Source: a virus (Duplodnaviria > Heunggongvirae > Uroviricota > Caudoviricetes). Taken from it: a stretch of DNA of 10,696 nt. A model generated the notes under the pieces. It was given only the letters and a program-made list of their open reading frames with translations, made no database searches and was not told the DNA's origin. Within the stretch, counting starts at the first letter, position 1, and each line of letters starts with the position of its first letter. Made by a program: the position numbers and the translations under genes. The stretch covers positions 1 through 10,696 of the IMG/VR virus record IMGVR_UViG_2534681978_000009; one strand, 5' to 3'. Shown here piece by piece: positions 7,209-8,043 of the stretch.

Positions 7209-7274
7209 ATTAAAGAACACTTAAATTATCCACTAAAGGAATCTTAAGTCAAGTTTATTTAAGATGTCTTAACT
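7209..7274. promoter_or_regulatory. OR region: three 18-bp repressor operators with divergent PR (minus) and PRM (plus)
   Basis: Operators ATTAAAGAACACTTAAAT (7209-7226), ACTAAAGGAATCTTAAGT (7232-7249) and ATTTAAGATGTCTTAACT (7257-7274) share the pattern AtTaAAG-N4-CTTaAaT. PR on the minus strand: -35 TTGACT (plus 7247-7252), 16-bp spacer, -10 GATAAT (plus 7225-7230). Confidence 0.6.
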
Positions 7275-7925
7275 ATGAAAACTCAATTGATGGGAGAGCG
7301 CATTCGCGCTCGGAGAAAAGAACTCAAGATCAGGCAGGCCGCACTTGGAAAGATGGTCGGCGTGTCTAATGTTGCCATATCTCAGTGGGAACGCTCTGAG
7401 ACAGAGCCAAATGGAGAGAATCTTCTCGCCCTGGCTAATGCGTTGAAGTGTTCCCCTGACTATCTGATGAAAGGAGAGGAAAGTCTTTCAAACATTGCCT
7501 ATCACAGTAGGCATGATCCAAGAGGGTCATACCCTCTGATTAGCTGGGTGAGCGCAGGATGCTGGATGGAAGCTGTAGAACCATATCATAAGCGTGCAAT
7601 AGATAACTGGTACGATACAACCGTAGACTGTTCAGAAGATTCGTTTTGGTTGGACGTGAAGGGAGACTCAATGACGGCTCCGGCCGGTCTCAGTATCCCT
7701 GAAGGAATGATAATACTCGTCGATCCTGAAGTAGAGCCGCGTAACGGGAAACTGGTAGTTGCAAAGCTCGAAGGAGAAAACGAGGCAACTTTCAAGAAGT
7801 TAGTTATTGATGCAGGCAGGAAGTTTCTAAAACCACTTAACCCACAATATCCGATGATCGAGATCAACGGAAACTGCAAAATCATCGGCGTAGTTGTCGA
7901 TGCAAAACTAGCAAACCTTCCATAA
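7275..7925 (+). CDS. c2: Prophage repressor, P22 c2-like (HTH plus S24 LexA-type autopeptidase domain)
   Basis: 216 aa. HTH QAALGKMVGVSNVAISQWERSE, Ala-Gly cleavage site in VSAGCW, Ser/Lys dyad in GDSM and KLVVAKL. Overall very similar to P22 c2 as recalled. The ATG directly abuts operator 3. Confidence 0.9.
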   Translation: MKTQLMGERIRARRKELKIRQAALGKMVGVSNVAISQWERSETEPNGENLLALANALKCSPDYLMKGEESLSNIAYHSRHDPRGSYPLISWVSAGCWMEAVEPYHKRAIDNWYDTTVDCSEDSFWLDVKGDSMTAPAGLSIPEGMIILVDPEVEPRNGKLVVAKLEGENEATFKKLVIDAGRKFLKPLNPQYPMIEINGNCKIIGVVVDAKLANLP

Positions 7926-7947
7926 GGGGGCATTCGCCCCTTTTTTA
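7926..7947 (+). terminator. Rho-independent terminator after the repressor gene
   Basis: GGGGGC-ATTC-GCCCC followed by TTTTTTATTT, immediately after the c2 stop. Confidence 0.55.
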
Positions 7948-7989
7948 TTTCCTTTAAAAATCAAAGCCAAACTTAAGTTACGAAAGAAA

Positions 7990-8043
7990 ATTTAAGTTTT
8001 CTTCAAAAATACTCTTGACCATTAATTAAAGAGATCTTAAATT
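7990..8043 (+). promoter_or_regulatory. OL/PL: leftward early promoter with operators
   Basis: -35 TTGACC (8015-8020), 16-bp spacer, -10 TTAAAT (8037-8042). Operator ATTAAAGAGATCTTAAAT (8025-8042) has the same consensus as the OR sites; a second operator-like site is ATTTAAGTTTTCTTCAAA (7990-8007). Confidence 0.5.

Follow-up and report, generated by a model that had tools for sequence, protein, structure and literature searches.

The DNA analysed here (IMG/VR record IMGVR_UViG_2534681978_000009, positions 1 to 10,696; hereafter the window, all 10,696 bp of it) is very probably (about 90%) the early control, replication and nin region of a lambdoid Escherichia coli prophage, with positions 7209-8043 as its immunity centre and with both the switch and the surrounding mosaic already known from described phages. 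The alignments identify CUS-3 (CP000711), a P22-like Lederbergvirus of E. coli K1, as its closest described relative. Sequence identities, domains, the number and placement of the operators, motifs of promoters and terminators, and colinearity with described phages were computed directly. The open reading frame (ORF) listing together with database comparison gives, for the rightward operon on the − strand, the order Q, ninH, rusA, ybcO/hkbD, a frameshifted roi, ninF, ninE, ninB, three small genes, helicase, O, a small gene, cII and cro, and, on the + strand, c2, N, two genes of unknown function, cIII and kil. Coordinates of individual features are collected in Table 1.

A core shared with CUS-3

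Window positions 3962-8769 (helicase, O, cII, cro, c2, OL/PL, nutL and N, where OL and OR denote the left and right operators and PL and PR the corresponding promoters) align with CUS-3 in a single colinear piece of 4.8 kb at 98.1% identity. Gene order is the same from helicase to N; the c2, cro and cII proteins are 100% identical, O 99% and the helicase 99.6%, and a 206-nt segment of the N leader, discussed below, is 99.6% identical in the two. The block from cII through cro and c2 to OL (6600-8050) recurs over 100% of its length at 99.2-99.4% identity in JEP4, CUS-3 and Gally, and its cro-c2-OL part at 99.7% in IME10 and N7. On these identities, the combination of imm21/P22 immunity, a lambda cII, an O with iterons of its own and a P22-type helicase is already known, near base-for-base in CUS-3, JEP4 and Gally.

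Departures from CUS-3 are confined to the Q end (1-1011), the stretch from ninB to the helicase (~2803-3961) and the gene that follows N. That phage has another Q module (30% identity to the QuuD/DLP12-type Q of the window) and lacks the two small genes found at 3221-3693; the ninB of the window is HK620-type, the gene after N shares 50% identity, and N, 90% identical overall, diverges at its C-terminus.

Positions 2612-10696 match, at 99.98% identity, a prophage located at 2.97 Mb in the genome of E. coli NCCP15648. Position 2612 is a sharp recombination point: the 2.6 kb to its left resemble a second NCCP15648 prophage (96.5%) as well as Stx2 prophages, and lack ninX between ninE and ninF.

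Operators and promoters of the immunity centre

The operator pattern ANTNAAGNNNNCTTNANT (ANTNAAG-N4-CTTNANT) has exactly four perfect 18-bp matches in the window (OR1, OR2, OR3 and OL1), against a chance expectation of 0.01 from shuffled sequences, none of which (0/200) reached four. Three of them occupy the 80-bp gap between the divergent cro and c2 genes, and the remainder lies just 3′ of c2, overlapping the PL promoter. Alignment to the annotated operators of P22 and coliphage 21 thus gives the layout of a 21/P22-type immC region: three perfect OR sites, a perfect OL1, an OL2 with one mismatch and a degenerate OL3. The claim that four shared operators flank a P22-like c2 and cro therefore holds, all four perfect sites falling in the two control regions.

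Between c2 and N, the ORF listing and terminator scan returned no + strand ORF of at least 40 aa, and just the terminator directly after c2, so that the interval between repressor and PL is free of a rex-type gene, as had been predicted. This absence is no peculiarity of the window, since P22 and phage 21 share the c2-terminator-OL layout: P22 immC has no gene between c2 and OL, and in the imm21 region of coliphage 21 (OL657228) the terminator, OL3, OL2, OL1 and PL follow directly after the repressor gene. Lambda (rexAB) and HK620 (hkaS), in contrast, carry genes between repressor and OL.

Repressor, Cro and immunity specificity

The c2 protein combines a helix-turn-helix with an S24 peptidase domain and is 97.2% identical to the phage 21 cI and 92.1% to P22 c2. 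Its residues 17-53, helix-turn-helix included, are identical to those of P22 c2, and its best matches in the PDB are the N-terminal domain of P22 c2 and its operator complexes (1ADR, 2R1J and 3JXB; E-value 3e-37). A cro of the same type, 96.7% identical to that of phage 21 and 95.1% to that of P22, lies divergently next to OR1, and the OR DNA is 1 nt away from that of phage 21 and 3 nt from that of P22. The window shares with P22 the operator consensus and identical OR1 and OL2 sites. The original prediction of a P22-type immunity is thus right at the level of the family, while the closest relative by c2, cro and OR alike is coliphage 21. Given this closeness of c2, cro and OR to both phages, the identity to P22 c2 over residues 17-53 and the P22 c2 structures as best PDB matches, we infer that the specificity is the shared 21/P22 immunity.

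Mosaic structure and alternative readings

Several observations weigh against reading the window as an already described switch and mosaic in a lambdoid prophage. OL3 is degenerate, its sole recognisable part being a half-site ACTTAAG at ~7972-7978, and the immunity specificity is itself deduced from sequence. The whole 10.7-kb window occurs in one piece in no phage record or complete E. coli genome, the best coverage being 77% in CUS-3 and 83% among 5426 genomes; by these alignments the exact gene set is a further recombinant, especially at the Q end and in the ninB-to-helicase interval. Finally, 1-bp frameshifts interrupt two accessory genes, so that the prophage may be not fully intact.

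The frameshifts could point to a prophage in decay that can no longer be induced, and not to a functional phage, a reading we consider unlikely. The roi/KilAC antirepressor gene (1737-2460, − strand) carries a +1 frameshift at ~2155 (GCAACCGCCGAAAAT against GCAACCG-CGAAAAT in the intact RM10410/HK620 genes), and the split either marks it as a pseudogene or stems from misassembly. In the small gene between cII and O (6357-6584, − strand; PHROG 2519, 90 aa in relatives, function unknown), a 1-bp deletion in a G run at ~6416, relative to CUS-3, NCCP15648 and MS7163, alters the last third of the protein. Both indels, however, sit in short homopolymer runs where assembly errors could produce them, both genes are accessory, and c2, cro, cII, N, O, helicase and Q are all intact, counted as 99-100% identical to the virion-forming CUS-3. 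The small cII-O gene is left without annotation in the CUS-3 record.

Very unlikely, in turn, is a novel mosaic in which a P22 immunity centre has been joined at gene boundaries to foreign cII, replication and nin modules. Taken against P22, lambda and HK620, the window does look like one. P22 matches are confined to two segments (immunity, and helicase with the C-terminal part of O), lambda matches to cII and short boundary pieces, and HK620 matches to the nut sites, the 5′ half of N and nin genes; the lack of any full-length match, given above, points the same way. P22 itself has c1 (57% aa identity to the cII of the window), gene 24 with its own boxB, a different gp18 N-terminal domain and iterons, and different nin and Q genes. 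Coliphage 21 parts from the window in its cII (39% aa), N (62% aa) and nut sites; its O is lambda-type, with the iterons of lambda, and the 206-nt leader segment is absent. At the family level the module assignments and the mosaicism relative to P22, lambda and HK620 were correctly predicted, including the lambda-like cII, the initiator with a lambda-O-like start and different iterons, and the DnaB-type helicase resembling P22 gene 12. For the "DLP12-like ybcO-rusA-ninH-Q" the order and the families agree and Q is close (77%), but rusA and ybcO are HK620/CUS-3 alleles, 43% and 68% identical to their DLP12 counterparts. Novelty does not survive for the core: the whole-region alignment returns colinearity with CUS-3, and the immunity-cII block is found in three described phages. 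Likewise, most joints do lie at gene ends, in short shared sequences, but two are intragenic, in O (~5737) and in N (~8635). Such mosaicism is normal for lambdoid phages, and the CUS-3 record annotates "boundary sequences".

Least credible of all is a heteroimmune variant with P22/21-like repressor and operators of drifted specificity: 17 of the 216 c2 residues are not those of P22 c2, and OR2, OR3 and OL1 are each 1-3 positions off P22, but within the first 53 residues the differences are just K2N and E16K, outside the recognition helix and leaving 17-53 identical, the consensus half-sites are kept despite the operator changes (OR2 is nearer the consensus than P22 OR2), and Poteete, Ptashne, Ballivet and Eisen reportedly found in 1980 that either repressor binds both P22 and 21 operators.

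cII, nut sites and N

In the early region of this CUS-3-like prophage, cII is of the lambda family, with a Phage_CII domain and a TTGC-N6-TTGC target at PRE; by analogy with lambda, the box would serve CII there. The N protein is chimeric. Residues 1-64, with the arginine-rich N-terminus, match HK620 N at 95% identity; for residues 65-97 the match is to the C-terminus of lambda N, at 58%. Since boxA and boxB are the same in nutL as in nutR, both nut sites lie in HK620-like DNA (98-99%) and the N-terminus of N is likewise 95% HK620, the alignments indicate that N and its two nut targets travel as a matched set.

Proposed working of the switch

Binding, repression, cleavage and antitermination are expected here from work on P22, 21 and lambda. 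Dimers of c2 would bind the 18-bp operators, occupancy of OR1 and OR2 shutting off PR and occupancy of OL1 and OL2 shutting off PL. The repressor would be transcribed from PRM almost without a leader, because OR3 abuts the c2 start codon, and its transcript would end at the terminator following the gene. RecA-stimulated self-cleavage of the S24 domain would then lead to derepression, and Cro made from PR would act on the same operators. HK620-type N, acting at the identical boxA/boxB of nutL and nutR, would render PL and PR transcripts resistant to termination, and lambda-type CII would establish c2 synthesis by activating PRE through its TTGC-N6-TTGC box.

An additional segment in the N leader

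The N leader has its elements in the same order as that of lambda (PL start, boxA, boxB, long hairpin and N Shine-Dalgarno), and its first transcript bases are lambda-like; by analogy with lambda and P22, the PL transcript probably starts at ~8050 (ATCAGCAGGACGC, as in lambda). In the long hairpin downstream of nutL the base of the stem is preserved (CTTTGGGGTG...CACCnCCAAAG), whereas the interior differs wholly in sequence and length among prophages (loci L017, L045, L062, L077 and L222 of our set); an RNase III role analogous to that in lambda may be supposed. Unlike lambda, the window then has an extra, structured 206 nt between this hairpin and the N ribosome site, in a leader of ~394 nt. 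The segment is extra relative to HK620 too, and alignments did not find it in lambda, P22, 21 or HK620.

Among 50,697 phage records, the segment is present only in CUS-3 and HK140; it occurs in 159 of the 5426 E. coli genomes, and among IMG/VR contigs 58 carry it while at least 120 have the junction without the insert. Diverged copies stand behind a P22-type boxB and a gp24-like N (L017, L045, L063 and L077) and behind a third nut/N type (L062 and L213), giving about six allele types behind three nutL/N types. Four hairpins are conserved, with variation mainly in the loops, and AGGAGG-N4-ATG-TGA is kept in all copies, including the 58 contigs, which were retrieved by an independent junction pattern. 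Comparison of the alleles revealed no conserved ORF on either strand of the segment.

Standard pairs fill 96% of the pair cells against ~42% when partners are slid by 1-3 columns, a contrast inflated because the structure was derived from the same sequences. Double changes occur at two pairs only (GC to AU in P3 and CG to UA in P6), and the shuffle control for double-change pairs was not significant (137/500). Several one-sided changes yield G-U pairs, which fits the + strand, and folding z-scores are −2.9 and −3.6 on that strand and weaker on the − strand. A wider search for alleles returned chance matches only among genome contigs, from Firmicutes and other unrelated taxa, and HK140-type copies only among metagenomes; with so few further alleles the covariation evidence is weak and suggestive only.

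Other identities for the segment were rejected. As a known small RNA it fails, since Rfam 15 gave no match anywhere in the window at E-values up to 1, and AgvB and AsxR, the prophage anti-sRNAs, map downstream of PR′. As a terminator it fails too, with no hairpin followed by a U run on either strand. A 129-aa ORF on the − strand (8043-8432) is annotated in NCCP15648 by PGAP as "hypothetical protein" (WP_139840865.1) and also in UTI89-type prophages; it lies antisense to PL, nutL and the leader, lacks a ribosome site and has its frames broken in the HK140 allele, and is most likely a spurious gene call. Small + strand ORFs of the leader, including HK140 gp47 (41 aa), are unconserved among alleles, where compensating indels shift the frame.

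We tentatively put forward, as a plausible reading but one we would not bet on, that the segment acts in cis as a hitherto undescribed regulatory RNA controlling the expression of N. It may do so through the P6 hairpin gating the N ribosome site, or through ribosome loading at the invariant Shine-Dalgarno-ATG-TGA.

Table 1. Positions of control elements, genes and mosaic segments in the window
Feature	Position	Strand	Sequence or motif	Remarks
OR1	7209-7226		ATTAAAGAACACTTAAAT	Perfect pattern match; overlaps PR −10; identical to P22 and phage 21 OR1
OR2	7232-7249		ACTAAAGGAATCTTAAGT	Perfect pattern match; overlaps PR −35; 1 nt off P22 OR2 and 1 nt off phage 21 OR2
OR3	7257-7274		ATTTAAGATGTCTTAACT	Perfect pattern match; abuts c2 start codon; same as phage 21 site, one spacer change against P22
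OL1	8025-8042		ATTAAAGAGATCTTAAAT	Perfect pattern match; within PL
OL2	7990-8007		ATTTAAGTTTTCTTCAAA	One mismatch to pattern; identical in P22
PR promoter	7225-7252	−	TTGACT-16-GATAAT	Toward cro; promoter scan, 10/12 matches; position as annotated P22 PR; overlaps OR1 and OR2
PL promoter	8015-8043	+	TTGACC-17-TAAATT	Promoter scan; overlaps OL1
Intrinsic terminator of repressor transcript	7924-7946	+	GGGGGCATTCGCCCC, then T run	Terminator scan; homologous position in P22 and phage 21
c2/cI prophage repressor	7275-7925	+		216 aa; HTH_3 and Peptidase_S24 (Pfam)
cro	7009-7194	−		61 aa
cII, lambda-type	6607-6900	−		97 aa; Pfam Phage_CII PF05269, E-value 5e-48; 97.9% aa and 97% nt to lambda
PRE CII box (putative)	6878-6891	+	TTGCGTTTGTTTGC (TTGC-N6-TTGC)	Overlaps cII start; inside 97% lambda-identical 6611-6917
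oop-type antisense terminator	6631-6658	+	12 pairs and T run	Terminator scan; within cII 3′ end; lambda-identical segment
nutR	6959-7001	−	boxA GCTCTTTAACA (7001-6991); boxB hairpin CCCGC-CGAAAT-GCGGG (6976-6959)	6898-7001 99% to HK620
nutL	8090-8130	+	boxA GCTCTTTAACA (8090-8100); boxB hairpin as in nutR (8113-8130)	8043-8223 98% to HK620
Long leader hairpin	8145-8220	+	GGCTTTGGGGTGACG...CGTCACCGCCAAAGTC	Leader fold; position of the lambda N-leader RNase III hairpin
Non-coding N-leader segment	8224-8429	+		206 nt; hairpins P1 8237-8267, P3 8334-8364, P5 8371-8389, P6 8393-8430
Leader Shine-Dalgarno	8276-8281	+	AGGAGG	Followed by ATG-TGA, 8286-8291
N ribosome site	8434-8438	+		P6 ends 3 nt upstream
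N antiterminator	8444-8749	+		101 aa; PHROG 271 N-like, E-value 3e-36
O-type replication initiator	5363-6310	−		315 aa; Pfam Phage_rep_O; origin inside gene
DnaB-type replicative helicase	3990-5366	−		458 aa; Pfam DnaB and DnaB_C; counterpart of CUS-3 P; 90.2% to P22 gp12
Q late antiterminator	467-901	−		144 aa from likely start MRDIRQ...; Pfam Phage_antitermQ, E-value 2e-50; 77% to DLP12 QuuD
rusA	1088-1450	−		92% aa to HK620/CUS-3; 43% to DLP12 RusA
ybcO/hkbD, DUF1364 protein	1447-1737	−		94-96% aa to HK620/CUS-3 hkbD; 68% to DLP12 YbcO
P22 helicase/O C-terminal segment	3924-5737			Stops within O, at the origin separating its two domains
Lambda cII segment	6611-6917
HK620 nutR segment	6898-7001
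P22/21 immunity segment	6988-8106			84.4% nt to P22
HK620 nutL and leader segment	8043-8223
HK620 N 5′ segment	8429-8635			Ends inside N

Replication and nin genes

The O-type initiator has the architecture of the lambda O family, with an N-terminal Phage_rep_O domain (PF04492; aa 20-132, E-value 3e-15, 56.8 bits against a cut-off of 28.7) and intragenic iterons with an AT-rich stretch behind them. The first ten residues resemble those of lambda O (MTNTAKILNF), the rest of the N-terminal domain is just ~32% identical to lambda O, and tblastn found no match in P22 gp18 for that domain beyond the first ten residues. The C-terminal residues 185-312 (128 aa) are 58% identical to P22 gp18. The iterons (CCGCACATGAnG-type, 5753-5895) are unlike those of lambda, so the origin specificity differs; they recur with a 12-bp period and, lying in frame, encode a His/Ala-rich repeat in the linker joining the two O domains. 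Similarity to P22 starts at the AT-rich stretch directly downstream of the iterons. In the nin region, the ylcG of DLP12 is replaced by ninH.

Flanking genes and the left end

Positions 1-2464 are 94% identical to the Stx2d prophage of E. coli RM10410, in which Q is followed by a DNA methylase remnant (~69-248 in the window), tRNA-Ile/Arg/Arg and stx2. The window opens with ~27 bases that correspond to the last part of the tRNA-Ile gene. It contains no toxin gene.

Downstream of N, the gene at 8758-9207 (+ strand) specifies a protein of 149 aa (PHROG 3054) that has hydrophobic stretches, and is the one sharing 50% identity with its CUS-3 counterpart. The gene at 9342-10364 (+ strand) encodes a 340-aa coiled-coil protein rich in Glu, Ala, Lys and Arg, named "TolA" or coiled-coil in RefSeq, which is matched in two pieces by CUS-3, where it corresponds to two coding sequences. 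Pfam domains were found in neither protein.

Significance

The window documents one further natural lambdoid recombinant with the well-studied 21/P22 immunity switch, which in itself matters little. In practical terms, a host bearing this prophage should be immune to imm21/immP22 phages, and the likeness of the left end to the Q-tRNA-stx region of Stx2 prophages would be useful for strain typing. If any part raises a new question, it is the N-leader segment. N stands at the top of early regulation, and to our knowledge its leader-based translational control has been worked out for lambda alone, which lacks this segment. Should the segment indeed regulate N, it would be an optional, portable module, since it is found behind at least three nutL/N specificities in leaders that are otherwise unchanged around it.

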